This document shows, piece after piece, positions 43,365-60,305 of a DNA stretch of 64,000 nt. Origin of the DNA: a bacterium (lineage in GTDB: Bacteria; Joyebacterota; Joyebacteria; Joyebacterales; Joyebacteraceae); contig JALGZD010000218.1 of NCBI GenBank assembly GCA_025782395.1, positions 4,876 through 68,875 on the forward strand, written 5' to 3'. Position numbers and translations under genes: made by a program. The notes beneath the pieces are model-generated. The model searched no databases. It was not told the DNA's origin and saw only the letters and a list, made by a program, of their open reading frames with translations. The first letter of the stretch is position 1. Each line of letters opens with the position of its first letter.

Positions 43365-45692
43365 CTACTTGATGATCGCGAACTTGCCGATCGTTTCTCC
43401 CACAGGTGAGTCGATGTGGTACAGATAGACACCACTCACAATGATCTGATTGTTTCGAGATATCATGTTCCAGCACGCGTCACCGCCTGATTCCTCAGCA
43501 TCCGGATGGAGTGTCTTAACGAGCTCCCCTCCAAGTGAGTAAATCCTGACGATCGCATCGCGTGGCAGATTCTGGAAGCAGATTTTCTCTCCGGTTGGAT
43601 CCGTGTCGTCGGGCGCAAGGTTCCAGCGCGCCATGTACTCATGATCGACGTAGGGATTCGGTACTACGCGCACATCGTCCAACGTGTTGTGCACGGCCGA
43701 ACCGGGGATGACGAGAGTCTTGTTCTGCGAGTATTTCCCGTAGTGATAGCCTTCTGCCGTGCTGTCATACGCGGTGACGGAGTACCAGTAGGCGAAACCG
43801 TTCTTCACCAGCGTGTCGACGAAGGCATACTTCCCGATGCCCTCAAGCCCTGTGTCCCATTCCTCCAGCTCGACGCCACCATCGCCCTTGTCTATATCAA
43901 GGATGAGCTGCCAGTCCTGGTCGCGTGGCTCGGTCGATTCCCTCGTCCACCCGACGGCCTTCCAGACCTGGTAGCCGAAGAAGTCTCTGATTCTCGTCAA
44001 CGGATCTTCGAGCTCCTCAGGATAGTCGTCCCACTCGATGCGAACGAAGCGATCTCCCGACGTGATCTCCTGGGCCGGCGGAGGCGGAGGCGTATCGGCC
44101 ACCCAGTGGATGCGCACGCTCTCCGGCTCGCCTATGCAGTTGGGAACGGTCTGAGTGATGCCATTATAGATCTGCTGCGCCGTCGCAGCGTTCTCCAGCA
44201 TTCCATCGAAACCCTGCCCCAGCACGAACGCGTACTGAAACTCGAGTGTGTCGCCCGGCACGATCTCTCTGAAGGGCCCGGCTGAGAGGAGAAGGCGGTA
44301 GTCCTGCGGCGATTCCGCGTCCCGGTCGATGTTGACCATGTACTCGTCTTCTTCGTCGATATCGCCATCGTTGTCGTTATCGATGCCGTCCAGAAGCGGA
44401 TAGTCGGCTTCCCCTCTCAGGAGGCGATAACGATCCCTGTCGTGATTCGGATCCTCAGCACCGATCGACCAGATGCTGAACGCGTGGACCTGGACCCTCG
44501 TGGGGGCACTCGGCAGATTCCCCGGCAGCAACGTATCGGCGCTGATCGTCGGGTGACCGAGGAACATGCAACCAATGTAGCCGCCGGCCGTGTTGCCGTC
44601 CTGCCCATATGGATCGTCGAACATGTAGCAGAGTGACATCCGCAGAGTGTCGAGTTTTGCGGGGTCGTTCGGATTCTGGCTTGTGACCGTCGTGTCGATG
44701 TAGCCGCCGCGGTCATCTTGCCAATAGAAGAGATCGTTCTCGTCGGGACCGGCGTCCGCATCTACCATGAAGCCGACGTACGCCATGCGAATCGTGTCGT
44801 CACCTACGTTCGTGACCTGGTAGTTGATTCCGACAAAATCGTCCGTCTTCTCGCTCGTCCACTGGTAGCTTTCCTGAATGACTCTGAGACCCAGGCTCTT
44901 GTGAAGATCGATCGACGCGTTCCCGTTGACGTCCTCTTCATAAATGTCCGCGTAGATCATCCGGAACATCTGCTGCGAGATAGCAGCGAAATCTTCGTCT
45001 ACGAGGCCGTCGTCGTCATTGTCGACGCCGTCCAGCGGATCTTCATCGTACCATTCAAACGGCGCATCTTCGAAAAAGACGTGATCCGAGCAGTCGCCGT
45101 CATCGTCTGCGAATCTTGTGCTGTTCGCGCCGCCCTCCCAGGCTTCGTAGATTACCGCCAGAAAGTCATCAGGATCGGGGCGGAATTCCTGCTGGTAGAC
45201 GGCCGCCGTGACCAGCGTGTCGGGAGCTCCAGTCACATCATCCCGAACAATGCCCCCGAACCACAGACCTGCTGCATAGAGATACTCGTTGTTGCTGCCC
45301 GCCGGCCACTCGCAGGATGGATTGTTGAGATCGCCGCCGAATCTGCCGAAGAAACCCAGATTGCTGACGTGAAGCAGCACCTGCCCGACATTATGATACC
45401 AACCGAAATAGACATAGATCCGGCTCTCAATTTCACGCATCGCCTTTTCGTAGCCTGGATCGCTCGGGTCCATCCGTGCATCCGCGTCGCCTGGAATATA
45501 GACGACCATCATCGAGATGAGAGACACGAGCACGATCGCTGCTGCCAGCCGTCGTGCCGCAGGGAAAATGGTGCGTCCTCTTTTCTGACTAATCGTGCCA
45601 AGAATCATCAACAACCTCCGTACCGATTTCCCGGCGATCGTTACGCGTCGGTCGACCGGATCCAGGAAAACCCTCTGATCGACCAGACACAA
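43365..45692 (-). CDS. large secreted acidic protein with calcium-binding-type DxDxDG repeats and a type-A T9SS C-terminal sorting domain
   Basis: 775 aa. Signal peptide near LAAAIVLVSLISMMVVYIPGDADA. Repeated DGVDNDDDGLVDED and DGIDNDNDGDIDEED motifs. C-terminus ...IVRIYSLGGELVKTLHPDAEE...SGVYLYHIDSPVGETIGKFAIIK matches the type-A CTD. No HExxH motif seen. Confidence 0.7.
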   Translation of the reverse strand: MCLVDQRVFLDPVDRRVTIAGKSVRRLLMILGTISQKRGRTIFPAARRLAAAIVLVSLISMMVVYIPGDADARMDPSDPGYEKAMREIESRIYVYFGWYHNVGQVLLHVSNLGFFGRFGGDLNNPSCEWPAGSNNEYLYAAGLWFGGIVRDDVTGAPDTLVTAAVYQQEFRPDPDDFLAVIYEAWEGGANSTRFADDDGDCSDHVFFEDAPFEWYDEDPLDGVDNDDDGLVDEDFAAISQQMFRMIYADIYEEDVNGNASIDLHKSLGLRVIQESYQWTSEKTDDFVGINYQVTNVGDDTIRMAYVGFMVDADAGPDENDLFYWQDDRGGYIDTTVTSQNPNDPAKLDTLRMSLCYMFDDPYGQDGNTAGGYIGCMFLGHPTISADTLLPGNLPSAPTRVQVHAFSIWSIGAEDPNHDRDRYRLLRGEADYPLLDGIDNDNDGDIDEEDEYMVNIDRDAESPQDYRLLLSAGPFREIVPGDTLEFQYAFVLGQGFDGMLENAATAQQIYNGITQTVPNCIGEPESVRIHWVADTPPPPPAQEITSGDRFVRIEWDDYPEELEDPLTRIRDFFGYQVWKAVGWTRESTEPRDQDWQLILDIDKGDGGVELEEWDTGLEGIGKYAFVDTLVKNGFAYWYSVTAYDSTAEGYHYGKYSQNKTLVIPGSAVHNTLDDVRVVPNPYVDHEYMARWNLAPDDTDPTGEKICFQNLPRDAIVRIYSLGGELVKTLHPDAEESGGDACWNMISRNNQIIVSGVYLYHIDSPVGETIGKFAIIK

Positions 45693-45698
45693 AGGCGA

Positions 45699-48428
45699 CT
45701 ACCAGTCGATGGCGACTCCAACCCTGATGACGCGCCCCTCGAAAAAGGTGGACGGATCGTGCAGGGGTTCGAGAACTTCACGTCCCTCGGGATCAGTCTC
45801 GACATAGGCTCCGCCCAGATTCCCGGTCTCCGTGTAGTACTCGGCCCCGTAGTTGCCCAGACCCGTGACGTTCCGCTTGTCGAACACGTTGAGCGCCTCA
45901 AAGAAGAGCCGGAACTCGCGTCCATAGAGCCTGTACTTCTTCGTACCCCGCAGATTGACCGTCGTGTGAGACGGGAGCCTGCCGGAGTTCACGGACTCGG
46001 GATCGATCTGCTTTTGACCAAGATAGACCGGGGTGTAGGGCGTCCCACTGCCGTAGCTGTAGTCGAATGTCATTTCCCAGTTACCCGGATCACTGACGAA
46101 GAGAAAACCGGTCAGCGTGTGACGTTCGTCCCAATCGAGAGGGATCTCCTTCAGCGGCTGCCTCGGAAGTCCGAGAGCCTCTGCATTGGCGCCCTGGTTC
46201 TCATCCGAACTCACGCCCGTGGCCTGAAGCCACGTGTACGATACATTGCCGGAGAAGAAATTCGAGAATCTCTTCGTGAGTCTGAACTCGACTCCCTGAA
46301 CGGACGAGTAGTCCTTGTTCACGTATGTGTAGACGGAGCCTTCAGTCGGACCTCTCTGGTACTCCTCCGTAGCGAGGAGACCGAAGATGTCCTTGTAGAA
46401 GCCCGTGATATCCACGGCAACGTTCTGCGAGAACTGATGCTCCGCTCCGAACTGGTACGAAGTCGTAACCTCCGGCTCCAACCCCGAGTATCCAATGACC
46501 CTGCCCCCTGCAGCCTCAGCAATATCCTCGCCCGCGGCATAGTACGCGACAAGGCGGGGCATCTGATAGAAACGGCCGTAGTGGAAATGAAGGGCGTCCC
46601 GATCGGAGATCGGATGCGCGATTCCGAGCCTTGGACTCACGACCGCGGAGATCCTCTCCCGCCAGATCTCGTACTCACCGATACCCGATGACGAACCAGG
46701 ATCCGACCAGTCGAGCCTCAACCCCGCGCGGACAATCATGCCCTCATAGCGCATGCGATCTTGAACATAGAAGGCGCCGTTCGCCGGGAAGCCTTCGTAG
46801 ATATTGTGGCGGAAGCGCTCGCTCGTGTTGAGAGCCTCGTCCCAGTCGAAAAACTCGAAACTCGGATCGAGAGTATCGGTCGCACTCGGAATCAACGCCC
46901 CCAGACTGAGGCTCTTGACGAAAAGCTCGTTGTAAATCACTTCCAGACCCGTTCTGAACTGATGCGTCTCGTTCGGCTGATTCGTGACATCGGCCTTGAA
47001 AGTCGTCGCGGTCGTGGTCTGGTATGACCAACCCAGATTGTCCCCCCAGGCCCGGAAATAGCCGGTCTCAGGGTTCAGATCGTTGTCCGAATCCGGATCC
47101 GTCGTCCTGTTCCCACCGACGTAGGCCTCCCACCAGTAGTCGTTCGGATCCTCGTGGAGCCAGAATTTCTCCTCCGATTCGAAATGCGCGAACCTCACTG
47201 TGTAGAAAACGGACGGGCTGACGGTGTCACGCCAGACCAGCTTCTTCTGGGTGAACTGACTCCTGACAGTCGGCGTGTGCTCGGCTGCATTGTAGTATTT
47301 GTACGTCTCATCGAGCGGCACGTGCGACCAGTCTTCGTCTTCAACCGACCAGTAGCCCGATCGTGAGTACCTGTGGCTGTAGAAATCACGCTTGGTACTC
47401 GACAGCAGATACTCCGCTGTGAGCTTCCGCGTGGGTGTCACGAAGTACGACAGTTTTGCCTGGGTCGTGGCGAACATGCTCTGGCGGGGTCTGAACTCTA
47501 TTCCCCAGAACAGGTCTTCACTCTCGCGTGCCTCATTCGTCTTGAGGTACGTATCTGCGAAGCGCCCCTCGCCCGAAACATAGTATCGGACTTTCTCCGT
47601 GAACAGAGGGCCGCCGAAGCCAAATGCGAGGTTATCGAAATTGTCGAACGTCTTCTCCGGAGCTCCGTAGTCATCGGTCATGTACTTTATCTCGCCCGAG
47701 AAAGCGCGACCACCTTCGCGGGTCGCAAGGTTGATAACACCCGACTGCACGTTGCCGTACTCGGCGTCGAAACCTCCGGAAAGGAGATCGAACTCCGAAA
47801 GCGATGAGAGGCTGACCTCGAGCCCCGTCCCTCCCGTCGCACTGTTGGAGATAGCGATACCGTCAACATACATCTTCACTTCTGAGGCACGGCCGCCTCT
47901 GACGTGTATCTCTCCATCATGCAGAACAACGCCCGGCTGAGTCGCAATGGCCTCTGCAACTGTGTTGATGGGCCGGATCTTCGTCTCTTCGGTGTCTATG
48001 AAGCGGCGGGTCCCGCTGTCTTCTACGTCGATCATCGGACGCTCCGCCTGGACGACGACCTCAGGCGCCTGGAGTACCTCGGCCACCAGAGTGAGATTTA
48101 CCTCGGTGGAACGATCAGCGTCAACCACCACATCGTCAACACGTTGAGCCTCGTAACCCATGTAGCTGACCTGAATAACGTAGGTCCCGACAGGGATAAG
48201 ATCGATGATGTACTCGCCGTTCGGATTCGTCATGCTCCCGTAGGGCGTGCCCAGGATCGAGACATTGGCAAACGCCAGCACCGCGCCACCATCGCTCCTG
48301 ACAGTGCCGACGATCTTGCCGGTGCTCTGAGCAAGTGCCGGCGCGGCCCCGAGCACAACACCCACAAGGCAGAGTACGGCGACGCACGTTAGAGCACAAT
48401 CCCGGGACTTCGGTCTCGGAAGTTTCAT
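45699..48428 (-). CDS. TonB-dependent outer-membrane receptor with N-terminal carboxypeptidase-regulatory-like domain
   Basis: 909 aa. Signal peptide. CarbopepD_reg region (GKIVGTVRSDGGAVLAFANVSILG...NPNGEY), plug domain, long beta-barrel, C-terminal aromatic residue (…GVAIDW). Confidence 0.9.
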   Translation of the reverse strand: MKLPRPKSRDCALTCVAVLCLVGVVLGAAPALAQSTGKIVGTVRSDGGAVLAFANVSILGTPYGSMTNPNGEYIIDLIPVGTYVIQVSYMGYEAQRVDDVVVDADRSTEVNLTLVAEVLQAPEVVVQAERPMIDVEDSGTRRFIDTEETKIRPINTVAEAIATQPGVVLHDGEIHVRGGRASEVKMYVDGIAISNSATGGTGLEVSLSSLSEFDLLSGGFDAEYGNVQSGVINLATREGGRAFSGEIKYMTDDYGAPEKTFDNFDNLAFGFGGPLFTEKVRYYVSGEGRFADTYLKTNEARESEDLFWGIEFRPRQSMFATTQAKLSYFVTPTRKLTAEYLLSSTKRDFYSHRYSRSGYWSVEDEDWSHVPLDETYKYYNAAEHTPTVRSQFTQKKLVWRDTVSPSVFYTVRFAHFESEEKFWLHEDPNDYWWEAYVGGNRTTDPDSDNDLNPETGYFRAWGDNLGWSYQTTTATTFKADVTNQPNETHQFRTGLEVIYNELFVKSLSLGALIPSATDTLDPSFEFFDWDEALNTSERFRHNIYEGFPANGAFYVQDRMRYEGMIVRAGLRLDWSDPGSSSGIGEYEIWRERISAVVSPRLGIAHPISDRDALHFHYGRFYQMPRLVAYYAAGEDIAEAAGGRVIGYSGLEPEVTTSYQFGAEHQFSQNVAVDITGFYKDIFGLLATEEYQRGPTEGSVYTYVNKDYSSVQGVEFRLTKRFSNFFSGNVSYTWLQATGVSSDENQGANAEALGLPRQPLKEIPLDWDERHTLTGFLFVSDPGNWEMTFDYSYGSGTPYTPVYLGQKQIDPESVNSGRLPSHTTVNLRGTKKYRLYGREFRLFFEALNVFDKRNVTGLGNYGAEYYTETGNLGGAYVETDPEGREVLEPLHDPSTFFEGRVIRVGVAIDW

Positions 48429-49431: not shown

Positions 49432-50115
49432 TCAATCCATCAGATGCAACCAGTCTCTGAGCATGAACTGCATTCGTCCGATGAGAAGCGAGATACGGCC
49501 CATCACCGTGTAACCGAACGATGCACCGAACGCCACCATCAGAAACCAGATGCCGAGTCTCGCCACTCCGCCCAGAATTCCCTTGTGCTCCTTGGAGAAG
49601 AAGAAGTAGATGAGCGTTGAGAAAATCCCTGCAATGGCGATTGCGTTCAGGATGATCGCGAGAGGGCCTCCGGAGTCCAGGGGCATGGTCATCGTTGCAT
49701 GGATCTGGGCAACGAAGTCGCCCTGCGCGAAACCCGTGATGTTCACCGCGGCGTACATCCCGACGATGAACCCAAGCGACCACCGTGACAGCCACGAGAG
49801 CTTCGGGAAAAAGCGGAGCAGCATGAAGATGGCGAGGATCCCCGGAAAGATGCGAATCCACCGGACCGGGTCCCCACTCTCCCCCGGGAAGAGCGGAGTA
49901 ATCAGCTTGGGTACGAGGGTCTCGTGGTAGAGAAGCGCGAGCCAGTACGCAGCCCCGACGCCCACAAACAGGCTCTCAGCAAACTTGTAGAGCGGGTTGT
50001 CCTTGTAGAGGAAACTGTAGATGCAGATGGTCAGTATGGCGGCGACCCAACAGCCCCAGACCACGGAGGGTGGCGTTCCGGGCGGACCGTTGAACAGCAT
50101 GTGTAACCAGCTCAT
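49432..50115 (-). CDS. cassette copy 1 gene D: polytopic inner-membrane protein of unknown function (paralog of 52866..53501)
   Basis: Track ORF 49432..50178. Start placed at ATG 50115 (GAGGAA 3 nt upstream). 5-6 predicted TMs. Conserved YSFLYKDNP(L/F)YKFAE and C-terminal GASFGYTVM(G/S)R(I/V)SLLIGR. Confidence 0.55.
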   Translation of the reverse strand: MSWLHMLFNGPPGTPPSVVWGCWVAAILTICIYSFLYKDNPLYKFAESLFVGVGAAYWLALLYHETLVPKLITPLFPGESGDPVRWIRIFPGILAIFMLLRFFPKLSWLSRWSLGFIVGMYAAVNITGFAQGDFVAQIHATMTMPLDSGGPLAIILNAIAIAGIFSTLIYFFFSKEHKGILGGVARLGIWFLMVAFGASFGYTVMGRISLLIGRMQFMLRDWLHLMD

Positions 50116-50122
50116 GGTTTCC

Positions 50123-50968
50123 TCACTGGACGTCCCGTGCCCGACGCTTTTCCGAACGTCGCGAGATGAAGTAGACAATGTTCCCGAGCAAGATGAAGAC
50201 CACGATCAGCGCGTGAACGACCGACTGCGCGTCCATGCCGGATGTCGCATCGCCCGGTGCACCGACAAGAATCTCGTACTCTGCGGCGCCCTTCAGGCCA
50301 CCGAGAAGACCCGCCAGCTGCCCGCTCTGGATGTAGGGATAGAAGTTCGGCGCCCCGACGGCCGTCGTCCCGGAACCGAGAATCACGCGGAATCTGCTCC
50401 GGACCTGCTGGACCCACTCACGGGTGCCCGGAGTCCCCGCCGACACCTCCATGACGAACGCGATGTCGTCGAAATTCCGGACCTCCTGCATCAACGGGAT
50501 CTCCCCTACCGGCGTCCCGCCGTAGTCCGTCGGGAAGGTCTCGGGGATGCTCGCTCCCATACCGAGCAGCGTTACTATGCCGCCCGCCATGTAGCCGAGA
50601 TTCACGTAGTCCGTGCCGTACTCTTTGCCGAACTCCTCAGCCAGTGGACCAAGTGCCTGTTCCACCAACGGCGGCGATGCAGGCCACAGACACGCAACGA
50701 CGATCCTCAGATTCCTGCGGAATGCGTGCCTGATGAATGTCTGAGCCATCGGTTGAAGCTCCGGCATCGTGTCCGGGCTGTAGTCGCCCGCGAGCATGAC
50801 AATCGACCCCTCGGGCACGGCCTCAATCGCATCGTAGAGATCCTGCACCGGAGGCGAGACACCCATCGGCAGCTTGAGCGGCTGAAGCAGCGGCCACACG
50901 ACGGCCACCAGGACCAGCACGAAGATCAGCCGACGATCTATGTTTCTGATGTCGAACCCCTTGGCCAT
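50123..50968 (-). CDS. cassette copy 1 gene C: bitopic membrane protein (N- and C-terminal TM anchors flanking a ~220-aa alpha/beta domain), unknown function
   Basis: 281 aa. N-terminal TM (LIFVLVLVAVVWPLL), C-terminal TM (HALIVVFILLGNIVYFI) followed by basic tail RRSEKRRARDVQ. Paralog 53575..54420. Confidence 0.55.
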   Translation of the reverse strand: MAKGFDIRNIDRRLIFVLVLVAVVWPLLQPLKLPMGVSPPVQDLYDAIEAVPEGSIVMLAGDYSPDTMPELQPMAQTFIRHAFRRNLRIVVACLWPASPPLVEQALGPLAEEFGKEYGTDYVNLGYMAGGIVTLLGMGASIPETFPTDYGGTPVGEIPLMQEVRNFDDIAFVMEVSAGTPGTREWVQQVRSRFRVILGSGTTAVGAPNFYPYIQSGQLAGLLGGLKGAAEYEILVGAPGDATSGMDAQSVVHALIVVFILLGNIVYFISRRSEKRRARDVQ

Positions 50969-50971
50969 CGG

Positions 50972-51616
50972 CTACTTGTCTCCACCGAGATAGGAACGCT
51001 CGATCCCCAGGATAACGCGAAGCCCCATGGCCATCACGCCGAGAGCGGCACCCATCAGGATCCCGCGAAAGGCTGCCATGTTCGGGTAGGCCATGATCAT
51101 CTCTGTCAGCCACGGCAGCGTCGCCTGCTCAGGCAGCCCTCTCGTCAGGAGCTGGCCGAGCGGAACGCGCCCGAGCATAACGATGATGGCAGAGATGAGC
51201 AGCATGCTGGACTCCACCGAACGCAATCTGAAGGCGCGATAGGCGGCAGAAGCGATGAAGAACGCCAGCAGCGAGAACATCGTGCTCTGCAGCGGCACCT
51301 GCACATTGAGGAACATCCAGTTGAAGGCCGACCCTTCCTGGATCGTTCCCCAGGGGCCGCCGAAAAAGAGCATGATCGCCATCACCGACATGGTGACGAT
51401 ACTGTAGCCCCAACCTTCCTGCTTGCGGCTTATCTTCTTGTAATGGACGCGGATGAGATTTCCGACTCCGAGCAGGATCGATGCGGCTATCACGATCGTT
51501 CCCCACTGCTTCATCTCCGCGGCCGCCGAGCTGACCGCATGGTGCGGCACGAAAAAATCGACGAGCATGAACATGCCGACGAGGAACGTTATCGCAAGTG
51601 GTATTTCACGTCTCAT
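50972..51616 (-). CDS. cassette copy 1 gene B: polytopic inner-membrane protein of unknown function
   Basis: 214 aa, ~6 hydrophobic segments. Conserved LIRVHY(K/H)KI and FLNVQVP(L/I)(Q/E)(S/A)TMFSLLAF. Paralog 54467..55096. Confidence 0.55.
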   Translation of the reverse strand: MRREIPLAITFLVGMFMLVDFFVPHHAVSSAAAEMKQWGTIVIAASILLGVGNLIRVHYKKISRKQEGWGYSIVTMSVMAIMLFFGGPWGTIQEGSAFNWMFLNVQVPLQSTMFSLLAFFIASAAYRAFRLRSVESSMLLISAIIVMLGRVPLGQLLTRGLPEQATLPWLTEMIMAYPNMAAFRGILMGAALGVMAMGLRVILGIERSYLGGDK

Positions 51617-51631
51617 GAATATCGACTCCGA

Positions 51632-52855
51632 CTACTGCGTTTGGAACCAGGCCACGAACCACTCAAGACCGACGATGTGCGCGACGATGCCCGCCACCAT
51701 GAGAACAATGCTTACGACCTTCATCCAGTCGGAACCCTTGAGTCCCCCCAGAAGTTTCGGCTCTCTGGAGAGATATGCGCTTGCGGCGTAGAGCTCCTCG
51801 CCCATCAGGGTGAAATCACACGCCGTCACGAAGAAGGGAAGCTGGGAAACCATCGCCGTGCCGGCCACCTGGATGGCGCCGGCCTCAAAACCGGTCTCTG
51901 CCAGAAGCAACGACTCCGCCCAGAAAGCGCCCATGTAGAGATTGGCCGCCGGCTTCTCCCGCAGCATGATGCCGTTGACGGCCCCCGCGAAGGCGAACTG
52001 CGCGTCCGACAGATAGCGTATGTTGTCGGGATTGTAGGCGTCGGGATTGCCGACCTCGGCGTAGGCCTGCTTCACCACTTCCTCCGCCGCGGACATGACG
52101 ACGGCCCGGGCGGTCGGAACGATCAGCGGTGTGTCGTATCGTGCCGTGATCTTGGCGACGTGCGAGAGGATGTTGAGACTCGCGATGGTCATGATGTTGT
52201 CGATCTCGCCGATGCCCGGAACGTAGAGAACGGGGCGCCCCATCTCAGTGGCGCGTCCGACTGCCTCCTCGATGGCATTGAGGCCCGGAATGCGCCGCAC
52301 GAAGAGCTTCGCTCCTTTTCCGGCCGCCGCAGTGAACCACGTAACCATCGCGAAGAAAAGGAGCATCAACACAAGGACCGAGAGGCGAGACCACTGGAAC
52401 AGGTTGACCCGTCCGGCGACGGGTCCTGCCCACACGCGCTCGGAGCTGTTCGTGCCGTCGTACGCCTCCAGGCTGTAGTAGTACTCGACACCCGGTTCGA
52501 CCGACACATCCACGTAGTGCGTGGCACCGCTCGCGATCTCCTCGAGCACATCTCCCACTTCGCCCTCTGCGAGCGAACGCGACAGAACATAGCCCGTGAC
52601 ATCTCCGGCTCCGGAACCGTCATCCGGTGAGAGCCCCCACTCGATCTCGATCTTGTCGCCGGAGTCCGAGTGCTCAAGGTAGTCACGCACGGTGAGCGCG
52701 CACGGTGGACCGGGCGGAACGATGTCGAGAGCGGCCGATTCGATCCCGTCCTGTGGCGCGGTCTCCTGAGCCCGGACAGACCCGACTGCCGCCGCGGCAA
52801 GCGCAAGCGAAACGAGCAGTATGCGGCGAACTTGATTCATACGTGCTTTCCCCAA
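51632..52855 (-). CDS. cassette copy 1 gene A: secreted FN3-like domain, TM helix, ~230-aa conserved domain and C-terminal TM; unknown function
   Basis: 407 aa. Signal peptide LLVSLALAAAAVGSVRAQ. FN3-like region (EIEWGLSPDDGSG...YYYSLEAYDG). TM (LSVLVLMLLFFAMVTWF). Conserved VGRATEMG(R/K)P(V/I)L, GVNGIM(L/V)R, LAETG, TQLPFF(V/I)T(A/S)CD(F/Y)TL(M/I)GEELYAASAYLSREP. C-terminal TM. Paralog 55175..56380. Confidence 0.55.
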   Translation of the reverse strand: MGKARMNQVRRILLVSLALAAAAVGSVRAQETAPQDGIESAALDIVPPGPPCALTVRDYLEHSDSGDKIEIEWGLSPDDGSGAGDVTGYVLSRSLAEGEVGDVLEEIASGATHYVDVSVEPGVEYYYSLEAYDGTNSSERVWAGPVAGRVNLFQWSRLSVLVLMLLFFAMVTWFTAAAGKGAKLFVRRIPGLNAIEEAVGRATEMGRPVLYVPGIGEIDNIMTIASLNILSHVAKITARYDTPLIVPTARAVVMSAAEEVVKQAYAEVGNPDAYNPDNIRYLSDAQFAFAGAVNGIMLREKPAANLYMGAFWAESLLLAETGFEAGAIQVAGTAMVSQLPFFVTACDFTLMGEELYAASAYLSREPKLLGGLKGSDWMKVVSIVLMVAGIVAHIVGLEWFVAWFQTQ

Positions 52856-52865
52856 ACCGTCCCCG

Positions 52866-53501
52866 CTAGATCAGATGCAAGCAGTCGTGCAACAGGAAGC
52901 TCACGCGCCCGATCAGAAGAGATACTCGTGACATCACCGTGTATCCGAACGATGCGCCGAAACCCACCATCAGGAAGACAATGCCTACTCTGGCCATCAC
53001 ACCGAGGACGCCCTTGTGCTTCATCGAGAAGAAGAAATACGTGAGCGTTCCAAGAAGGCCTCCGACCACAAGGATGTTCGTAACAGATGTCAGTGGCAGT
53101 GCATTCGCACCTATCTGATCCAGCACGCGCGCCTGCATGATGGGCGAAAGACCGAGCCCGGCGTAGCCACCAACGTAGATGCCGAGCGGCCAGCGCCCCA
53201 CCCACCCGATCTTCGGGAAGAACCGCGTGTAAAGCAAGAGACCGAGAAGACCGGGTATCAGAGCCAGCCACCACGTGTTACTCCCAAGTCCTATCGCCTC
53301 ACCACCGAGCCGAAGCTGGAAGACGGGTGACACAACGTTCGGCTGGATGAAGTTGAAGTAGTAGATGACGAGATAGTAGCCGGCGGAGATGCCGACGACC
53401 AGATGCTCGGCGAATTTGTAGAACGGATTGTCCTTGTACAGAAAGCTGTACACGGAAAGCGTGAGCACTGCCCCGATCGTTGTCCAGATTATTGCCGCCA
53501 T
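52866..53501 (-). CDS. cassette copy 2 gene D (paralog of 49432..50115)
   Basis: Track ORF 52866..53645. Start at ATG 53501 (GGAGGAATCGATG). MAAIIWTTIGAVLTLSVYSFLYKDNPFYKFAEHL... Confidence 0.55.
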   Translation of the reverse strand: MAAIIWTTIGAVLTLSVYSFLYKDNPFYKFAEHLVVGISAGYYLVIYYFNFIQPNVVSPVFQLRLGGEAIGLGSNTWWLALIPGLLGLLLYTRFFPKIGWVGRWPLGIYVGGYAGLGLSPIMQARVLDQIGANALPLTSVTNILVVGGLLGTLTYFFFSMKHKGVLGVMARVGIVFLMVGFGASFGYTVMSRVSLLIGRVSFLLHDCLHLI

Positions 53502-53574
53502 CGATTCCTCCAGATGCTGCTTGTGGGTCGTACTCCGCCGCCGTTCATCGGCCGCGGCGCGGAAGAGCGCGAGA

Positions 53575-54420
53575 CTAGGCCGCGTTCCTCTCCTGCTCGC
53601 GTTTCTTCCGTCTGGCCCCAAAGTAGGCGATGTTGCCGAGAACAATCAGGATAATGATCAGGATGTGGATCACCGACTGCGAGTCCATGCCTCGAACTCC
53701 TGCGTCATGATGATCGATGAGCCCCTCGTACTCCGCCGCCCCACGCATCCCTCCCAGGAGCCCTACGAGCTGCCCGGTATCGAGGTACGGGTAGAAGTCC
53801 GTGGCCATGACCGCAGTAACGCCGGCTCCGACGTCCTGTCCATACGGCTGGTGCGCGTAGTAGACCCACGCCTCAGCCGCCGACCATCCCGCCAGACTGA
53901 TGAGAAGTGGAATGTCGTCGTAGTTCCTGACGCCGTCCAGTATCGGGATCTCACTCAGAGGTGTTCCGTACGCGTCTTCGGGGAAGACGTTCCGGATGTT
54001 CACCCCCATGCCGAGAATGACGGCCGAGATTCCGGGCTGGAACCCCAGGAAGCAGTAGTCCTCACCGTAGACCTGTCCCATCTCCTCCGCCACCTGGTTC
54101 ATCGCCCGTTCGGCCAGGCCGTAGCCTGCCGGATGCAGCGTCAGCACAGCCACGTTGACGTCGTTGCTGAACGCATGGCGCAGAAGTGCCAGGGACATGG
54201 GCTCAAGCTCCGGCAGCGTTGCCGGCGCGTAGTCGATCGCCAGAAGAAGCGGCTGCCCGTTCGGCGGAATCTCGTCGAGCGCGTCATACAGGTTCTGCAC
54301 GGGCTCCGTCACAACGACGGGTAGTCCTAAAGGGAAGAAAAACGGGATGATAACGGCGATTCCGATAGCAAGGAATATCCACCGGCGATCTATCTCCATG
54401 AATCTCTCAAAAATGTTCAT
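53575..54420 (-). CDS. cassette copy 2 gene C (paralog of 50123..50968)
   Basis: Track ORF 53575..54504. Start at ATG 54420 (MNIFERFMEIDRRWIFLAIG...), 281 aa, same bitopic architecture and basic C-terminal tail (RRKKREQERNAA). Confidence 0.55.
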   Translation of the reverse strand: MNIFERFMEIDRRWIFLAIGIAVIIPFFFPLGLPVVVTEPVQNLYDALDEIPPNGQPLLLAIDYAPATLPELEPMSLALLRHAFSNDVNVAVLTLHPAGYGLAERAMNQVAEEMGQVYGEDYCFLGFQPGISAVILGMGVNIRNVFPEDAYGTPLSEIPILDGVRNYDDIPLLISLAGWSAAEAWVYYAHQPYGQDVGAGVTAVMATDFYPYLDTGQLVGLLGGMRGAAEYEGLIDHHDAGVRGMDSQSVIHILIIILIVLGNIAYFGARRKKREQERNAA

Positions 54421-54466
54421 CGCTACCTCCGGATGCCTGGACAGCGGCGCGCGAGATCGGGAACCG

Positions 54467-55096
54467 CTAGTCTCCGCCTCCCATCCATGCCCGTTCGATC
54501 CCAAGAATAATCTTGAGCGATGTCGCCATCATCCCCAGACCGACGCCTATCATGATCCCCCGCTTGGCAGCCAGATTGGGAACCTCCAGGATCCAGCGTG
54601 TGGCCATCGGAATCGAGCTGTGAATCATGTCGCCGATCGGAACACGACCGAGCATGACTATGCAGGCCGCAACAAGAAGCAGGGTAGACTCGAGCGTCCT
54701 TGCCCTGAACGCCCTGAAGGCCGCTGATGCAACGTAGAATGCCAGGAGCGAGAACATCGTGGCCTCAATGGGAACCTGAACGTTCTGGAACATCTTATCG
54801 AACGGAGAACCTTGAGCATGGTGCGCGGAATGGAAGAACCCCAGCCCGATCATCAGGCAGAGCGCAAGTAGCGTCACCCAGCTGTAACCTCGATCGTCCG
54901 CCCTGTGTCTGATCTTGTGGTAGTGGACCCGAATCAGGCTGACCGTCCCCAGAAGAAATGCGAAGGCCAGGAGGGTCTGCAGCCATATGAGCAACCGCTC
55001 GTACATATCCTGCACCATAGGGTGCGGGATGAAGTACTGGACTGCCATGAAAAGCCCCGAGATGAAACAAAGGGCCAGTGGAAACTGACGACGCAT
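54467..55096 (-). CDS. cassette copy 2 gene B (paralog of 50972..51616)
   Basis: 209 aa polytopic membrane protein, conserved motifs as in copy 1. Confidence 0.55.
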   Translation of the reverse strand: MRRQFPLALCFISGLFMAVQYFIPHPMVQDMYERLLIWLQTLLAFAFLLGTVSLIRVHYHKIRHRADDRGYSWVTLLALCLMIGLGFFHSAHHAQGSPFDKMFQNVQVPIEATMFSLLAFYVASAAFRAFRARTLESTLLLVAACIVMLGRVPIGDMIHSSIPMATRWILEVPNLAAKRGIMIGVGLGMMATSLKIILGIERAWMGGGD

Positions 55097-55174
55097 CGTA
55101 CCATCCTCTCAGAATCGTCCCTGCGAAGCCGCACCGGAAACCCCAGCGGCGCGCGACCCGCTCGAGAACGCTAC

Positions 55175-56380
55175 CTAGCCTGTCGCAAGCAACGGGAGCA
55201 CAAAATTGCTCTCAATGACCCCGGTAGCCGTCAGCGTCGCAGCGATCACACCAACAACAAGGACCGCTGCGGCAATCAGTTTGAACATGTCCTGTCCCTT
55301 GAGACCACCCAGGAGGATAGGCTCTCTGGAGAGGTAGGCACTGGCCGCGTAGAGTTCTTCTCCGATGAGTGTATAATCGCACGACGTAATGAAGAACGGA
55401 AGTTGAGTCACGGCATCCGTTCCGGCTATCTGAATGGCCCCGATAGAAGAGCCTGTCTCCGCAAGAACAAGTGACTCTGCGTAGAACATGCCCATATAGA
55501 GAATCGTCGCGGGGCGCTGGCGAACCATGATTCCGTTGACACCGGCGACGTATGCGAACTGGCTTCGAGTCAGATAGAAGACATCGTCCTCGTTGTAGGC
55601 GTCGGGCCTTCCGGCCTTCGCGTACGCCTCCTTAACGACCTCCTGCTCGACAGCCATCACAATCGGATCCGCGCAGGGAACGATGAGCTTCGTGTTGTAC
55701 TCCGCCGTCTTCTTCGCGACTTCTCCCAGAATATTGATCGCCGCAATCGTCGCTACGTCAGAGACTGAGGAGAGACCTGAGATGAAGAGGATCGGCTTGC
55801 CCATTTCCGTCGCGCGGCCGACGGCGTTGTCCATCTCATCGAGCCCCGCCAGGCGCCGGATAAACAGCTCTTTCCCCGACTTTGCCGCCGTGACGAAGTA
55901 GACAATCGATACAACGAAGATGATGACGGCCACCATCACATTGAGCCGAGACCTATTGAACCACTGAGAAAAGGCCTCCACGGGGCCGAACGTCCCCGAG
56001 AAGAACAGGGACTCGTCCGTATCGAGGGCCGCCACACGGTAGTATGTCGGCTCGCTGTTGTCTATCCCGCTGTCGCGGTACTCGGTCTCCCCATGGGGGA
56101 CCCGGCCCACGAAGACGAAACCCGTCTCCGGATGGGCGGACCGAAAAACCTCGTACCCGGCAACGATGCCATCATTGTCATCGTCCGCTGACAGCTCCCA
56201 CGTTACATCGATGGAGCTGCCACGATCGTTCGGCGTATCGACAGCCATCAGACCCGTGGGCGGCGCGATGGGCAAGAGCGTCTCCAGCGCAACCGTTTCC
56301 GTCTCTTCCTGTGCAAACACCGCGACAGGACATAAGAAAAGGGCCGCCACTGCTACGGAGAGCGCAACGAACCCTGCCAT
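55175..56380 (-). CDS. cassette copy 2 gene A (paralog of 51632..52855): FN3-like domain, TM, conserved domain, C-terminal TM
   Basis: Track ORF 55175..56461. Start placed at the ATG giving MAGFVALSVAVAALFLCPVAVFAQEE (signal peptide). Shares the long conserved block with copy 1 A. Confidence 0.5.
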   Translation of the reverse strand: MAGFVALSVAVAALFLCPVAVFAQEETETVALETLLPIAPPTGLMAVDTPNDRGSSIDVTWELSADDDNDGIVAGYEVFRSAHPETGFVFVGRVPHGETEYRDSGIDNSEPTYYRVAALDTDESLFFSGTFGPVEAFSQWFNRSRLNVMVAVIIFVVSIVYFVTAAKSGKELFIRRLAGLDEMDNAVGRATEMGKPILFISGLSSVSDVATIAAINILGEVAKKTAEYNTKLIVPCADPIVMAVEQEVVKEAYAKAGRPDAYNEDDVFYLTRSQFAYVAGVNGIMVRQRPATILYMGMFYAESLVLAETGSSIGAIQIAGTDAVTQLPFFITSCDYTLIGEELYAASAYLSREPILLGGLKGQDMFKLIAAAVLVVGVIAATLTATGVIESNFVLPLLATG

Positions 56381-56556
56381 TGGGCCTATGCCGCCAGACC
56401 GCCCTCTGTCACCGAGCATCAACCGCTCCTTTCGTGCTTCCGTAACGTCGAGGGTTCCCATGGAACCCCCGACGCACTCTGCATTCGATTGCCAAGAAGG
56501 CTATCAGACGATTCAGTCGGTGTCAAGCCTAAGGGACGTCGGCATGAGGAAGCTTG

Positions 56557-57681
56557 CTACCGCTCTATCATTTCCACGTTGGCGCGCGGCAGCACGGTCT
56601 CGGACCCGTCGGCGAGCTTCACCCCTAGAACACGCACCATCGACTCGGACTCCATCTTCCGGAGTTCGTTCGGGAGCTCCGTAACAACGCCGAGGCTGCC
56701 GAAGTGAGGCTCCCGGATGATGCGAATGCTGCTTCCGATCTCGAGTCCGGCGGAACTCGACGCGTCTTGGCCGTCAGGCAGCTCAGCATCCGGCATCGGA
56801 ATGACGATCTCCGGCCGCATGACCCCGGCCCTGATCTGGGTTGCGCCGTTGATAGATGCCTTCTTCCCCTCTCTCGATTTCAGGAGGCTGAATGTACCTC
56901 CGGCCATTGCCATCGCGCCGAATCCCTCAGTCAGGATCAGCGTTGTCGCAATGTCCTCGGAACCGGTGATGGCGACACCGAGGTCCTTTCCCAGAAGCTT
57001 CTTGAGATCCGGGTCATCGAACCCACCGACCACTATGCCGCTCACCCCCATCTTCATCGCCTGCTGAAACCCGGCCCAGTCGACGTGCGAGCCGCCGATC
57101 ACGACCTTGTTCTTCATCGACTTGTCAAAAAGGGAAGCCTCAAGCTTTTGGTCGGGGCTGTCGACGGCAACGCGTATCTCCCCCGCCGTCTCCCCGCCTA
57201 CGCCGAAGATACCCTGGATGAACGACCCCTTGACCTCGATCGCTACACCTTCGTTCTCGAAAACCTCAACTACCTCCCCGTCCACGTATGCGTCCACTTG
57301 GATTGGCATGGGAGGCTCGCGAAGGATAACCTGCCCCGTGATGGTAGAAATGCTGTCGAGAGTACCGTCACACGGCGAGTTGACGGTCGCCTTGAAGAGA
57401 CCGAAGAATCCCTTCGTCATGGCGATCGGTTTCCCCCTCTCAATGGGATCTCCCGCCTTCCTGATCATGACGGACGGGAGGTCCTCCGGCGGGAGACCGA
57501 GCTTGCTTGCAACATTGACTAGCTGCACGTTGCCGGGAAGATGAGTTCGAGCCACGATCGTGTCCGATGAGACGTGATCGCCCTTGGAGACGATCACCTC
57601 TCCCTTGATGGGCAGGCGTCGCTCCTTTCTGAGCACGGTCATCTCTGAAACTCGCAACCCTGGCGTGTATGCGTGGGCCAT
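56557..57681 (-). CDS. hypothetical protein with N-terminal barrel-sandwich-hybrid (NqrA/RnfC-N-like) domain and a Gly-rich alpha/beta domain
   Basis: 374 aa. N-terminal KGDHVSSDTIVART...NSPCDGTLDSI pattern resembles the NqrA/RnfC N-terminal hybrid barrel. No lipoyl-lysine motif, no TM. Confidence 0.35.
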   Translation of the reverse strand: MAHAYTPGLRVSEMTVLRKERRLPIKGEVIVSKGDHVSSDTIVARTHLPGNVQLVNVASKLGLPPEDLPSVMIRKAGDPIERGKPIAMTKGFFGLFKATVNSPCDGTLDSISTITGQVILREPPMPIQVDAYVDGEVVEVFENEGVAIEVKGSFIQGIFGVGGETAGEIRVAVDSPDQKLEASLFDKSMKNKVVIGGSHVDWAGFQQAMKMGVSGIVVGGFDDPDLKKLLGKDLGVAITGSEDIATTLILTEGFGAMAMAGGTFSLLKSREGKKASINGATQIRAGVMRPEIVIPMPDAELPDGQDASSSAGLEIGSSIRIIREPHFGSLGVVTELPNELRKMESESMVRVLGVKLADGSETVLPRANVEMIER

Positions 57682-57717: not shown

Positions 57718-59520
57718 CTACGCCGGGTAGGCGTCAAGGGCCCTCGCCCACTTTTCCAGCTTCTGGACGCGCTTGTGCTCGTCGGTCGGAAGTTCGAAGG
57801 GACGTCCTCTGGTATCCACTATGAGTCCAACCACGCCACCGGTGAGTGTGCACTCGAGCGGCTTGCCGGCCCCCGCGCCCAGGTTGAATCCCTTCGCCGG
57901 AGTGAGCTTGGCGTTCACGGACTCTCCGATGGCGAGTGGGTAGACGATCATCTCACCGAACGGGATGTCATCGTTGACCACCGTGCCGTTCGGCAGCCTC
58001 GCCTCTACCTTCAGACAGGGCTTACCTTCCTGGGAAATCCCCACAGGAGACACGAGCGTCCCAAGGTAGATGAGGCAGTCTTTCTCGAACACCTCGGTCG
58101 CAGCCTTCTCGTGGACGCCCGCCAGAACCCCGAGCTGCGGCATCATGAAGATGGAGTCGACCGCCAGCTGCGTTATCCCCGCCGGCAAGAACGCATCTAT
58201 CATCATGAGAGCGGCCTGCTGTCTCCGCGGAGCATGAGAGAGAACACCGCCGGAACCGACCAGGATATCAAGATCCATCATGTTGACGAGCGTCTCACCT
58301 GAAGCCGACTGGCTGAACGCCTCGGAGATGGTTCGCTCCTGCTGGACGCCCTTCAAGCCTACCGCGAACGACTTGTGCTGGACGAATGCCAGCCTGAGCG
58401 CCTCTCGTGCTATCGCCTGCTCGATCTTGAGGTCTTCGAGCGACTGAGGAACCGTCGTCGGCCGGATCATCTTGTTCTTGATCCGGTTCCGCACCGACAG
58501 TTCCGGGAGCTTGAACGGAACCCACCGCATGACATTGTCGATCCCGGCCTCAGCCAGCACGTTTGAGACCGAGTAGCTCATGCCGAGGTTGGCGGAGACG
58601 GTTCGATTGAAGGTGTGCTGAAAGACTGAGAAGATGTCCGTCGTGGCTCCCCCGATATCGACGCCGACAACCTCGATTCCCCGCTGCTCTGCGATGGTCT
58701 GCATGATCAAACCGACGGCTCCCGGAGTCGGCATGATGGGCGCATCCGTCCAGCCCATCAGCTTGTTGTACCCGGGCGCCTGCGCCATGACGTGCTCCAT
58801 GAAAAGCTCGTGGATCTCTTCCCTCGCGGGTCCCAGGTTCTCCCTCTCCAGGACGGGACGGAGATTGTCGACCATCGAGAGGGCGGTCTTTTCGGCGAGC
58901 AAGTCGGTGACCTCGTCGCGGGCGTCTACATTGCCGGCGAAGATGACCGGAAGGTTGTAGCCCATACCCAGACGAGGCTTGGGATCGGCTGCGGAGATGA
59001 CCTGGCCCAGCTCGACTACGTGCGTAACTGTCCCGCCGTCGATGCCGCCCGAGAGCAGTATCATGTCGGGCCTTAGATGTCTGATCCGCTCGATCTGCTC
59101 GTGAGGAAGCCTCCCGTCGTTGGAAGCCAGGACGTCCATCACGATGGCGCCCGCGCCCAGCGCTGCTCTCTCCGCGCTCTCGGCCGTCATGCTCTTCACC
59201 ACACCCGCCACCATCATCTGGAGGCCACCGCCCGCGCTCGAGGTAGACAGGTAGAGATCGACACCTCTGTCTCCTCCGTCGCTTGGATGGATGAACGTCT
59301 CTCCATCCAGAATCGTGTGCCCGGACAGCTCCTCCACCTCCCGAACCGCGTTCAACACGCCTCTGGTCACATCCTCGAACGGAGCCTCGACCGTCGTCGG
59401 CGCCTCTCCCCTGACGACGAGCCTGTACTCCCCGTCGACCAGCTTGATGAGAATCGCCTTCGTGGTCGTGCTCCCGCAGTCGGTGGCGACTATGGCCCTG
59501 ATCTTCCCGTTCTCACTCAT
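57718..59520 (-). CDS. ASKHA-fold (actin-like ATPase) protein of the GlmL/MutL glutamate-mutase-accessory-like family, unusually long (~600 aa)
   Basis: Track ORF to 59541; start probably MSENGKIRAIVATDCGSTTTKAILI (D-x-GST-x-TK phosphate-1 motif). Second nucleotide-binding block VGVDIGGATTDIFSV. No GlmE/GlmS genes nearby. Confidence 0.4.
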   Translation of the reverse strand: MSENGKIRAIVATDCGSTTTKAILIKLVDGEYRLVVRGEAPTTVEAPFEDVTRGVLNAVREVEELSGHTILDGETFIHPSDGGDRGVDLYLSTSSAGGGLQMMVAGVVKSMTAESAERAALGAGAIVMDVLASNDGRLPHEQIERIRHLRPDMILLSGGIDGGTVTHVVELGQVISAADPKPRLGMGYNLPVIFAGNVDARDEVTDLLAEKTALSMVDNLRPVLERENLGPAREEIHELFMEHVMAQAPGYNKLMGWTDAPIMPTPGAVGLIMQTIAEQRGIEVVGVDIGGATTDIFSVFQHTFNRTVSANLGMSYSVSNVLAEAGIDNVMRWVPFKLPELSVRNRIKNKMIRPTTVPQSLEDLKIEQAIAREALRLAFVQHKSFAVGLKGVQQERTISEAFSQSASGETLVNMMDLDILVGSGGVLSHAPRRQQAALMMIDAFLPAGITQLAVDSIFMMPQLGVLAGVHEKAATEVFEKDCLIYLGTLVSPVGISQEGKPCLKVEARLPNGTVVNDDIPFGEMIVYPLAIGESVNAKLTPAKGFNLGAGAGKPLECTLTGGVVGLIVDTRGRPFELPTDEHKRVQKLEKWARALDAYPA

Positions 59521-59887
59521 CAGCACCTTCCTCTGGTTCATCGGCCGCGCGCTTCGCCTCCTTACGCCGCCTCTTTTCTTTCCTGGTCTTCTGTTGCTCC
59601 TCCGCCTCGAGTTCCTCTATGCGTCGAAGAAGACGCTCCACGTTCTCCCTGTCTTCCAGGAGCGTCATGATATCGTCGTAGCTCTTGAAGGTGAAGATGC
59701 TCTGAACGATGGGCTGGAAAAAGACCATCGTCTGGTTTCCGAGGAACGACAGGGGCTTGACCGACTCCAGAAACAGGATCGCCGGGGTTGCGAGCCGTCG
59801 CTCGACGATTTTCTGAGCGAACCGGTCCAGCACCTCAGACGGCTCCTTGTCCTCCGTCTCCTCCTTTGCCGCTCTCATCGACCACAT
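59513..59887 (-). CDS. small acidic/basic coiled-coil hypothetical protein
   Basis: 124 aa. C-terminal EELEAEEQQKTRKEKRRRKEAKRAADE charged helix. Confidence 0.3.
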   Translation of the reverse strand: MWSMRAAKEETEDKEPSEVLDRFAQKIVERRLATPAILFLESVKPLSFLGNQTMVFFQPIVQSIFTFKSYDDIMTLLEDRENVERLLRRIEELEAEEQQKTRKEKRRRKEAKRAADEPEEGADE

Positions 59888-60305
59888 CCCTCACGTCCTC
59901 CTCGCGGTTCACAATCATCCGCTCGACAACAGCCATGACCTCGTCGCGGTTGCCGTGAAACTGGAGCGACACACCGCGAAAGCGTTCGAGCCTCGAGCGA
60001 CCGACGAAGGGAGAAAGAAGCACGCCCTCACGATCCTTGTGGAAGCTCCGGAACTCGCTCCAGCTCTTTTCTTTTCTGCTCACGAGTCCCTTGACGAAGA
60101 CGCTCTCATCTGTAAGGCTGTAGTGCGTCGGCAGGTAGAAGCCGGCGACCTGCCCCCACATCAGGAGCACTGCCAGAACAGTGAAATAGCCGGTTTCGAG
60201 CCAGCTTTGAAGAGTCCACGCCAAGAGAGCGATGACGGCCAGTCCGGCCACCGCCCTGACAGGACTCCTGAGCATCGGCCAAGCCGTCCAGGAGAGCTCC
60301 GCCAC
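59835..60305 (-). CDS. membrane protein with two N-terminal TM helices and a bacterial PH-like (bPH/YdbS-type) domain
   Basis: 156 aa. Two hydrophobic segments, then SLTDESVFVKGLVSRKEKSWSEFRSFHKDREGVLL, reminiscent of membrane-proximal bPH domains. Confidence 0.35.
   Translation of the reverse strand: MAELSWTAWPMLRSPVRAVAGLAVIALLAWTLQSWLETGYFTVLAVLLMWGQVAGFYLPTHYSLTDESVFVKGLVSRKEKSWSEFRSFHKDREGVLLSPFVGRSRLERFRGVSLQFHGNRDEVMAVVERMIVNREEDVRDVVDESGKGGDGGQGAV

Follow-up and report, generated by a model that had tools for sequence, protein, structure and literature searches.

The window analysed here, a 64,000-nucleotide stretch of contig JALGZD010000218.1 (assembly GCA_025782395.1) from a member of the Joyebacterota, carries eight consecutive co-oriented minus-strand open reading frames (ORFs) which make up two collinear sets of four genes, A, B, C and D. 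Comparison with other genomes makes it very probable that the four products are the subunits of a real, conserved inner-membrane complex, and they are read as one complex because their synteny is invariant, because C and D also occur as a natural fusion and because the most conserved segment of A could not be modelled alone. Judged from the sequences, the complex, which is proposed to be obligate, appears to be of a kind so far uncharacterised (the “DUF6754 system”), lying outside every characterised kind tried. The window is best explained as holding this system twice within a single run of co-oriented genes, as versions that diverged in ancient times and became subfunctionalised.

Gene organization of the window

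In the ORF list for 44-60 kb, A2-B2-C2-D2 spans 56461-52866 and A1-B1-C1-D1 spans 52855-49432, both on the minus strand (Table 1). A preliminary description of this DNA had proposed the double A-B-C-D arrangement, and all eight ORFs were recovered at or near the coordinates that it gave. The short gaps of 3-15 nt which it reported for copy 1 were found as well, at 10, 15, 3 and 7 nt.

The eight ORFs have a GC content at third codon positions (GC3) of 0.71-0.78. An ORF of 869 amino acids (aa) lies antisense to A1-B1-C1 on the plus strand (50021-52630); with a GC3 of only 0.63 it is taken for a shadow ORF that the high GC content of the DNA produces, rather than for a gene. Between 48 and 64 kb, promoter-like and terminator-like sites did not exceed their frequency in shuffled sequence, and an Rfam scan of the whole window matched no RNA element; thus, nothing speaks against a single long co-oriented transcription unit.

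Table 1. The two A-B-C-D cassettes and neighbouring genes in the window (TM, transmembrane)
Feature	Position	Strand	Probable start	Length (aa)	Description
A2	55175-56461 (ORF)	-	56419 (start of the annotated database homologue P0001)	414	
B2	54467-55096	-		209	6 TM helices
C2	53575-54504 (ORF)	-	54420	281	bitopic
D2	52866-53645 (ORF)	-	53501	~211	6 TM helices
A1	51632-52855	-		407	architecture as A2
B1	50972-51616	-		214	6 TM helices
C1	50123-50968	-		281	bitopic; periplasmic domain predicted to be Rossmann-like
D1	49432-50178 (ORF)	-	50115	227	6 TM helices
X374	56557-57681	-		374	predicted cytoplasmic; upstream of A2; frequent neighbour of ABCD arrays
GlmL/MutL-like ASKHA-fold ATPase	57718-59541	-		607	paired with X374
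s124	59513-59887	-			small protein; travels with MutL-X374 (tblastn synteny)
s156	59835-60305	-			small, probably membrane protein; often precedes s124 (tblastn synteny)
TonB-dependent receptor	45699-48428	-			with CarboxypepD_reg; downstream of the lipoate ligase
775-aa protein	43365-45692	-		775	no Pfam match
PorV-like protein	42331-43302	-			26.2 bits, just under the cut-off of 27 bits
FadL-like protein	41271-42341	-			

Distribution and synteny of the four-gene module

The module is carried by at least 600 species-representative genomes (one genome per GTDB species), and relatives of A2 number at least 8000 in the protein collection. Named relatives come from Candidatus Eisenbacteria, Edwardsbacteria, TA06, Zixibacteria, Stahlbacteria, Coatesbacteria and WOR-3, and the window itself is most similar to metagenome-assembled genomes (MAGs) of Eisenbacteria. 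Gene neighbourhoods were compared by tblastn of all window proteins against 160 fetched loci, of which 80 were the best from the one-genome-per-species scan with A and 80 were reached via X374. The best 80 loci add Ignavibacteria, Latescibacterota, Poribacteria and Armatimonadota, giving about a dozen phyla in all.

Synteny in other genomes, which the preliminary description had put forward as a check, was upheld essentially throughout these phyla. Where the sequence continues for 3.2 kb or more beyond A, which is so for 109 A genes, the order A-B-C-D was found every time. When only 1 kb or more downstream is required, B follows A in 135 of 138 cases; of the remaining three A genes, two are orphans in WOR-3 and one belongs to an A-A tandem. 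This tandem (L029:8810-9790) stands ahead of a single B-C-D. Orphan DUF6754 genes (DUF6754 being the Pfam family of A) without B-C-D were seen in some WOR-3 genomes (L030:10001-10996, L074:2526-3533 and L165:10001-11101), the last of them followed by a radical-SAM HemN-like gene.

Arrays of two to four cassettes are common (L010, L013, L018, L025, L036, L038, L048, L052, L055, L058, L062 and L063), and in every duplication seen the four genes were duplicated only as a unit. The natural C-D fusion, of 571 aa, lies on the Zixibacteria chromosome CP070824.1 (L075:12036-13751). B is the subunit in which length variants were noted: in one paralogue clade, third-position copies reach about 270 aa through a partial duplication of the region of transmembrane (TM) helices 2-3 (L055, L063, L048, L058, L075 and L043), and a B protein from Ignavibacteria (L010:11136-12914) has an insertion of about 390 aa, for a total of 592 aa.

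Such data bear on the simplest alternative, that the four genes encode membrane proteins of separate function which are merely co-located and were duplicated at the operon level without sharing a complex. The orphan A genes of some WOR-3 genomes would fit this explanation. It does not account well for a gene order kept through every duplication in about a dozen phyla, for gaps that are tight or even overlapping, for the C-D fusion, for the invariable duplication of all four genes together or for an A protein whose most conserved part is not modellable alone, and mere co-location is therefore regarded as highly improbable.

Family assignment and homology searches

A1 and A2 are full-length members of Pfam DUF6754 (PF20539) with an additional N-terminal fibronectin type III (FN3) domain. 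Against the DUF6754 profile, which has 257 positions and a gathering cut-off of 27 bits, A1 scored 385.7 bits (profile positions 3-256; E 1e-115) and A2 scored 407.5 bits (positions 3-252). The FN3 domain was recognised both by sequence profile and by its beta-sandwich fold. Database homologues of A share the FN3 plus DUF6754 architecture and carry the NCBI name “fibronectin type III domain-containing protein”. The preliminary description had been unable to map any of the four proteins to a family, which no longer holds for A and does hold for B, C and D. These three have no family in Pfam, NCBIfam or PADLOC, and their own family profiles, built from 66-93 diverse members, found no relative among PDB sequences. 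When all D members were compared with Pfam, only hydrophobic noise was returned. The PADLOC models of anti-phage defence recognised no family among the ten proteins scanned, and no relatives of the module were found on viral contigs.

The DUF6754 entry describes a catalogued domain only and is silent on B, C and D, on the four-gene module, on its arrays and on the linkage to MutL and X374. No paper mentioning DUF6754 or PF20539 was found in the literature searched. MTH777 (PDB 1kjn), an uncharacterised archaeal a/b protein, is named among the nearest known systems; the literature under MTH777 and GlmL held nothing bearing on the module.

The absence of any resemblance to Rnf/Nqr or MotA/ExbB proteins, as claimed beforehand, is borne out by profile hidden Markov model and fold searches, which gave no characterised family, ABC-2 included. 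None of the eight proteins matched MotA_ExbB, ExbD/TolR, GldL/GldM or PilN/O in Pfam at E <= 1; the same Pfam library does pick up genuine TolQ/TolR in a related locus. Likewise, none matched ABC_tran or ABC2_membrane in Pfam or NCBIfam, with module contents always being A, B, C and D only, and none matched Rnf-Nqr in either library at E <= 1. In all, the module could be assigned to none of the Rnf/Nqr complexes, MotA/ExbB-type stators, ABC/ABC-2 systems, binding-protein-dependent transporters or defence systems. No sequence or specific fold similarity was found to the tripartite transporters TRAP (DctPQM) and TTT (TctABC) or to tethered substrate-binding domains. Compared with TRAP and TTT, the modelled C has a single lobe with an anchor at either end, the TM helices number six in each of B and D rather than four and twelve, and A has no counterpart.

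Relationships inside the module were examined as well. B and D were considered as possible paralogues and rejected, with an hhalign probability of 0.8% and halves that are unrelated too, and no internal repeats were detectable in either protein. Homology between the DUF6754 domain of A and C, as paralogues of inverted topology, is a tempting idea, as both share a layout of TM helix, a/b domain, long helix and TM helix with a parallel order of secondary structure. It is not supported: hhalign gave E values of 0.002-0.005 but probabilities of 7-13%, and hmmsearch gave at most 5.7 bits, which does not exceed the scores against B or D and barely tops reversed controls. Only a parallel architecture is claimed.

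Age of the duplication

Corresponding proteins of the two cassettes had been judged by eye to be 50-65% identical, which proved too high. BLASTP gave 48% for A1 and A2 (E 9e-114), 47% for B1 and B2 (E 2e-59), 46% for C1 and C2 (E 2e-77) and 42% for D1 and D2 (E 2e-62), and no cross-similarity between different letters among the eight proteins. Divergence between A1 and A2 is uneven: their FN3 domains are 34% identical, their conserved C-halves in the cytoplasm 71%. At the DNA level, similarity between the copies is patchy and confined to short blocks of 70-76%; hence the two cassettes are not a recent repeat.

A neighbour-joining tree built from 110 A proteins puts A1 in one deep clade and A2 in another, each together with positional counterparts from related MAGs, and array positions 1, 2 and 3 each form their own clade across loci. 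As the paralogues are only 42-48% identical and array positions form clades of their own, the duplication of the cassette is old, in line with the ancient duplication that had been suggested from the window sequence.

Topology, structure models and conservation

Topology was derived from alignment-averaged hydropathy and positive-inside counts over alignments of 66-93 sequences, and agrees with the earlier assignment, in which A has a signal peptide, C is bitopic and ends in a basic tail, and both B and D are polytopic. A is predicted to have a signal peptide (sites VFA|QE and VRA|QE, by eye), an acidic periplasmic FN3 domain, a TM helix, a juxtamembrane segment rich in lysine and arginine, a cytoplasmic domain of about 200 aa, a second TM helix and a short external tail. 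B would have its N terminus inside and six TM helices, and D about six. C would also start inside, with an invariant D11-R12-R13, followed by a TM helix, a periplasmic domain of about 215 aa, a second TM helix and a basic cytoplasmic tail.

The AlphaFold2 model of C, made from an 89-sequence alignment, reached a predicted local distance difference test score (pLDDT) of 90.9 and a predicted template modelling score of 0.84. In it, the N-terminal TM helix is followed by an a/b sandwich of six strands, after which a long helix runs on as the second TM helix; the periplasmic domain is Rossmann-like in this model. A Foldseek search of the model against PDB gave no match at E <= 0.001 and generic fold matches only. 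The model of A was less confident (pLDDT 72.5), the confident parts being FN3 and the first half of the cytoplasmic a/b domain. All matches in a fold search with it were to FN3, the conserved half being poorly modelled. The pLDDT drops below 50 precisely at the most conserved stretch, AESLxLAETG ... QLPFFITxCDYTLIGEELYAASAYL, which is therefore read as a putative inter-subunit or membrane-facing interface.

Conservation is concentrated in the cytoplasm and the membrane. The majority residue reaches a frequency of 0.80 in the cytoplasmic C-half of A and 0.66-0.70 in TM4-6 of B and in TM1-2 and TM5-6 of D, with FN3 lowest at 0.43. Near-invariant motifs of the A cytoplasmic domain are GRATEMGxP ... 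AESLxLAETG ... QLPFFxxCDYTLIGEELYAASAYL, and about 60 positions of the domain are invariant, including R202, T204, E205, E315, S316, E321, T322, C347, D348, E354, E355, K374 and D377. Invariant polar residues in or beside TM helices are S123, R127 and E206 in B (B1 numbering), N40, Y43, E47 and R207 in D, and H252 and N263 in C.

Genomic partners and neighbourhood

Partners were sought by clustering all flanking ORFs, among which were 150 same-strand operon mates. The survey is dominated by the aroB, aroK and sulfatase genes of one lineage, and only the GlmL/MutL-like ASKHA ATPase, X374 and s124 recur across phyla.

X374 belongs to no Pfam or NCBIfam family, and its matches to Biotin_lipoyl and to the RnfC_N barrel-sandwich are below threshold (RnfC_N, 16.6 bits versus a cut-off of 25.6). 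Its profile found nothing in PDB, with no RnfC or NqrA chain at E <= 10. Mean column identity across phyla is 70%, and from its sequence the protein looks enzyme-like; it is possibly an accessory partner of ABCD. Members share an invariant N-terminus, MxHxYTPGL, and the motifs FxQGIFGxGGE, GVAITG, TEGFG, NGATQIRAGVxRPE and PRANVE, and X374 was met at no fewer than 588 places in metagenome contigs. A role as a lipoyl or biotinyl carrier was rejected, since the “AMKM” found in the window is not conserved in the X374 family.

The ATPase scored 423 bits against Pfam MutL (cut-off 27; E 2e-126) and stayed below the NCBIfam equivalog cut-offs, with 226.6 bits versus 475 for accessory_GlmL and 214 versus 600 for Or-4. 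It is accordingly assigned to the family and not regarded as an orthologue of characterised GlmL. GlmL is a chaperone involved in the reactivation of glutamate mutase (PMC4682846). The window protein differs further from the GlmL and Or-4 profiles in being about 120 aa longer, in having no B12 mutase nearby and in a linkage to ABCD that is frequent but not obligate.

In a reciprocal scan via X374, MutL adjoins X374 in 41 of 54 loci, and ABCD is present in 14 of the 23 X374 loci with long flanks. The linkage of MutL/X374 to ABCD, as seen from the X374 side, is thus strong but not obligate. The small gene s124 stands directly between X374 and A in several lineages (L139, L140, L148 and L156); no family was found for s124 or s156 in Pfam or NCBIfam. 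In 14 loci without adjacent MutL and ABCD (L083, L090, L092, L099, L102, L103, L116, L124, L125, L132, L138, L142, L144 and L145), X374 is followed by a PorV-like protein, mostly with accA and era further downstream. Elsewhere (L089, L101, L113 and L118), X374 is followed by TolQ-TolR-TonB_C-...-OmpA, a Tol-Pal-like set. The pair formed by the TonB-dependent receptor and the 775-aa protein is also found downstream of ABCD in related loci (L121).

Linkage to glycine cleavage (gcv) genes and lipoate ligase, noted beforehand for the window, was recovered in Eisenbacteria-like lineages, where gcvPA-PB lies upstream and lplA downstream of the cassettes, but not elsewhere, so it was dropped as a general functional clue. 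Edwardsbacteria have two ABCD cassettes placed between Fer2_4/Pyr_redox_2/Fer4 genes upstream and SO_alpha_A3/Fer2_BFD plus DAO genes downstream (L161/L162 3732-14797; L163; L164). We take this flanking set to resemble HcnABC or the heterotetrameric proline or sarcosine dehydrogenases. As a general rule, an amino-acid catabolism context was rejected, being limited to the Eisenbacteria-like and Edwardsbacteria lineages. In other lineages the cassettes have unrelated housekeeping genes around them, for example aroK/aroB, sulfatase, adenylate kinase, cdsA and, in Ignavibacteria, PPDK and ADP-forming acetyl-CoA synthetase. A suggested co-occurrence with the type IX secretion system (T9SS) was not found, as neither T9SS linkage nor a recurrent outer-membrane partner appeared in the operon-mate survey.

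Functional interpretation

The “envelope or transport” role named in the preliminary description is treated here as a candidate role. We tentatively propose, from the sequences and their genomic context, that the complex may be a transporter or translocator with paralogue-specific periplasmic recognition. Transport is hinted at because tandem paralogues diverge chiefly in their periplasmic parts, while the cytoplasmic and membrane core is conserved, and because two phyla embed the cassettes in amino-acid-oxidation operons. The complex would then be a translocation machine, most likely for solute uptake. B and D, with 12 TM helices between them and invariant polar and charged residues in these, would form the pathway. 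In the periplasm, the FN3 domain of A and the C domain, Rossmann-like in its model and clamped between two TM helices, would take in a substrate or partner and set paralogue specificity. The DUF6754 domain of A, predicted to be clamped between two TM helices on the cytoplasmic side, would act as the common gate or engine, and the often adjacent GlmL-like ATPase, X374 and s124 may service it. The enclosure of cassettes by two distinct amino-acid-oxidising operons is a hint that small amino acids are taken up; we consider it quite improbable that amino acids, or small compounds of nitrogen, are the substrates.

Several observations weigh against a translocator. No subunit resembles a known transporter, channel, motor or enzyme in sequence or fold searches, B and D lack internal repeats and are mutually unrelated, and neither an ATPase nor any recognisable element for energy coupling is part of the module. 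Only two or three lineages show the amino-acid context, with housekeeping neighbours elsewhere. Linkage to MutL-X374 is not obligate, the pair lying within 10 kb of A in about 15 of 80 loci, and a few A genes in WOR-3 are orphans. The position-conserved arrays, moreover, could mean one hetero-oligomeric super-complex and not several substrate-specific transporters.

This last point leads to a trans-envelope energy transducer or structural envelope machine, in which an ion-driven or ATPase-coupled inner-membrane platform would touch peptidoglycan or outer-membrane partners through FN3 and C. Its functional analogues would be Tol-Pal, TonB-ExbBD, PorLM and the PilMNO platform, and we regard both this role and these analogies as rather unlikely. 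ASKHA proteins are used by pilus, secretion and division platforms, and the recurrent link to an ASKHA-fold ATPase is one of the features that suit such a machine. In a comparison with ASKHA platforms (PilM-PilNO, GspL, and FtsA or MreB with MreCD) and GlmL/MutL chaperones, the point of likeness is that a GlmL/MutL-family protein is the commonest cross-phylum neighbour here. Membrane tethering of FN3 and of a second periplasmic domain, the invariant charged or polar TM residues (R127 of B, E47 of D, H252 and N263 of C) and arrays in which paralogues keep their positions, as befits one hetero-oligomeric machine, are in keeping with it. So are the genes into which the window's gene string continues, for a TonB-dependent receptor and for outer-membrane proteins of PorV-like and FadL-like type, and the occurrence in some lineages of X374 ahead of Tol-Pal genes or a PorV-like protein. 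These outer-membrane neighbours are, however, lineage-specific, and the operon-mate survey yielded no recurrent partner among them. The Pfam searches against MotA_ExbB, ExbD, GldL/M and PilN/O were negative at E <= 1, and the system is also present outside the Fibrobacteres-Chlorobi-Bacteroidetes and T9SS phyla, in Poribacteria and Armatimonadota.

A further explanation is a membrane-bound enzyme or an energy-conserving (redox or ion-pumping) complex, loosely Rnf/Nqr-like in layout, with a catalytic cytoplasmic domain in A. Its peripheral partners would be the flanking dehydrogenases (the glycine cleavage system, or the DAO/Pyr_redox_2/ferredoxin-like proteins) or X374. The roughly 60 invariant positions of A, with their polar residues and C-D pair, would be more usual in a catalytic site than in a scaffold. 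The cassettes of Edwardsbacteria are flanked on both sides by Fe-S/FAD dehydrogenase subunits, and the neighbours in Ignavibacteria are energy-metabolism genes. The subunit pattern also recalls NqrD/E plus NqrC plus NqrA/RnfC: two six-TM subunits of about 210 aa (B and D), a bitopic subunit with a periplasmic domain (C) and an adjacent soluble protein, X374, with its sub-threshold similarity to the RnfC_N/biotinyl-lipoyl barrel-sandwich. This likeness to Na+-NQR and Rnf is superficial. Pfam Rnf-Nqr matches neither B nor D, which are non-homologous, unlike NqrD/E and RnfA/E; the fold of C is Rossmann-like and not that of FMN_bind; and the X374 profile misses NqrA and RnfC in PDB. The module has no Fe-S, flavin or other cofactor motifs and no Cys/His clusters; among such residues, only a single Cys (in A) and a single His (in C) are invariant. 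The dehydrogenase context is found in one or two lineages only. An enzyme or redox pump, with or without these partners, is thus judged unlikely.

Returning to translocation, a broader proposal, which we hold to be somewhat doubtful, is that ABCD is the core of an unrecognised class of inner-membrane machine. Such a machine would consist of four families without characterised relatives, with Rossmann-like domains on opposite faces of the membrane (A in the cytoplasm, C in the periplasm), coupled to the GlmL-like ASKHA ATPase, X374 and s124. It would perform a core uptake or energy-coupled translocation function in a dozen largely uncultured phyla, and its two to four paralogues may form a hetero-oligomeric super-complex.

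Implications

At least 600 species-representative genomes, and metagenomic proteins by the thousand, represent the module, which is frequently multi-copy and surrounded by housekeeping genes. Three of its four families have no DUF number, and the fourth, DUF6754, is catalogued without a paper in the literature searched. The invariant motifs, the predicted topology and the set A+B+C+D, with or without MutL, X374 and s124, are now defined as testable targets.

Carrier phyla such as Zixibacteria, WOR-3, Eisenbacteria, Ignavibacteria and Poribacteria occur abundantly in sediments, soils and sponges, and nearly all knowledge of them comes from genomes. For every metabolic reconstruction of these phyla, a membrane machine that is conserved, present in multiple copies and without an assigned function is therefore a real gap. 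Should the complex prove to be a new class of transporter or energy-coupling device, membrane biology would gain a new architecture; should it prove to be an envelope machine, it would be relevant to the ways in which these diderm lineages construct or energise their envelopes.

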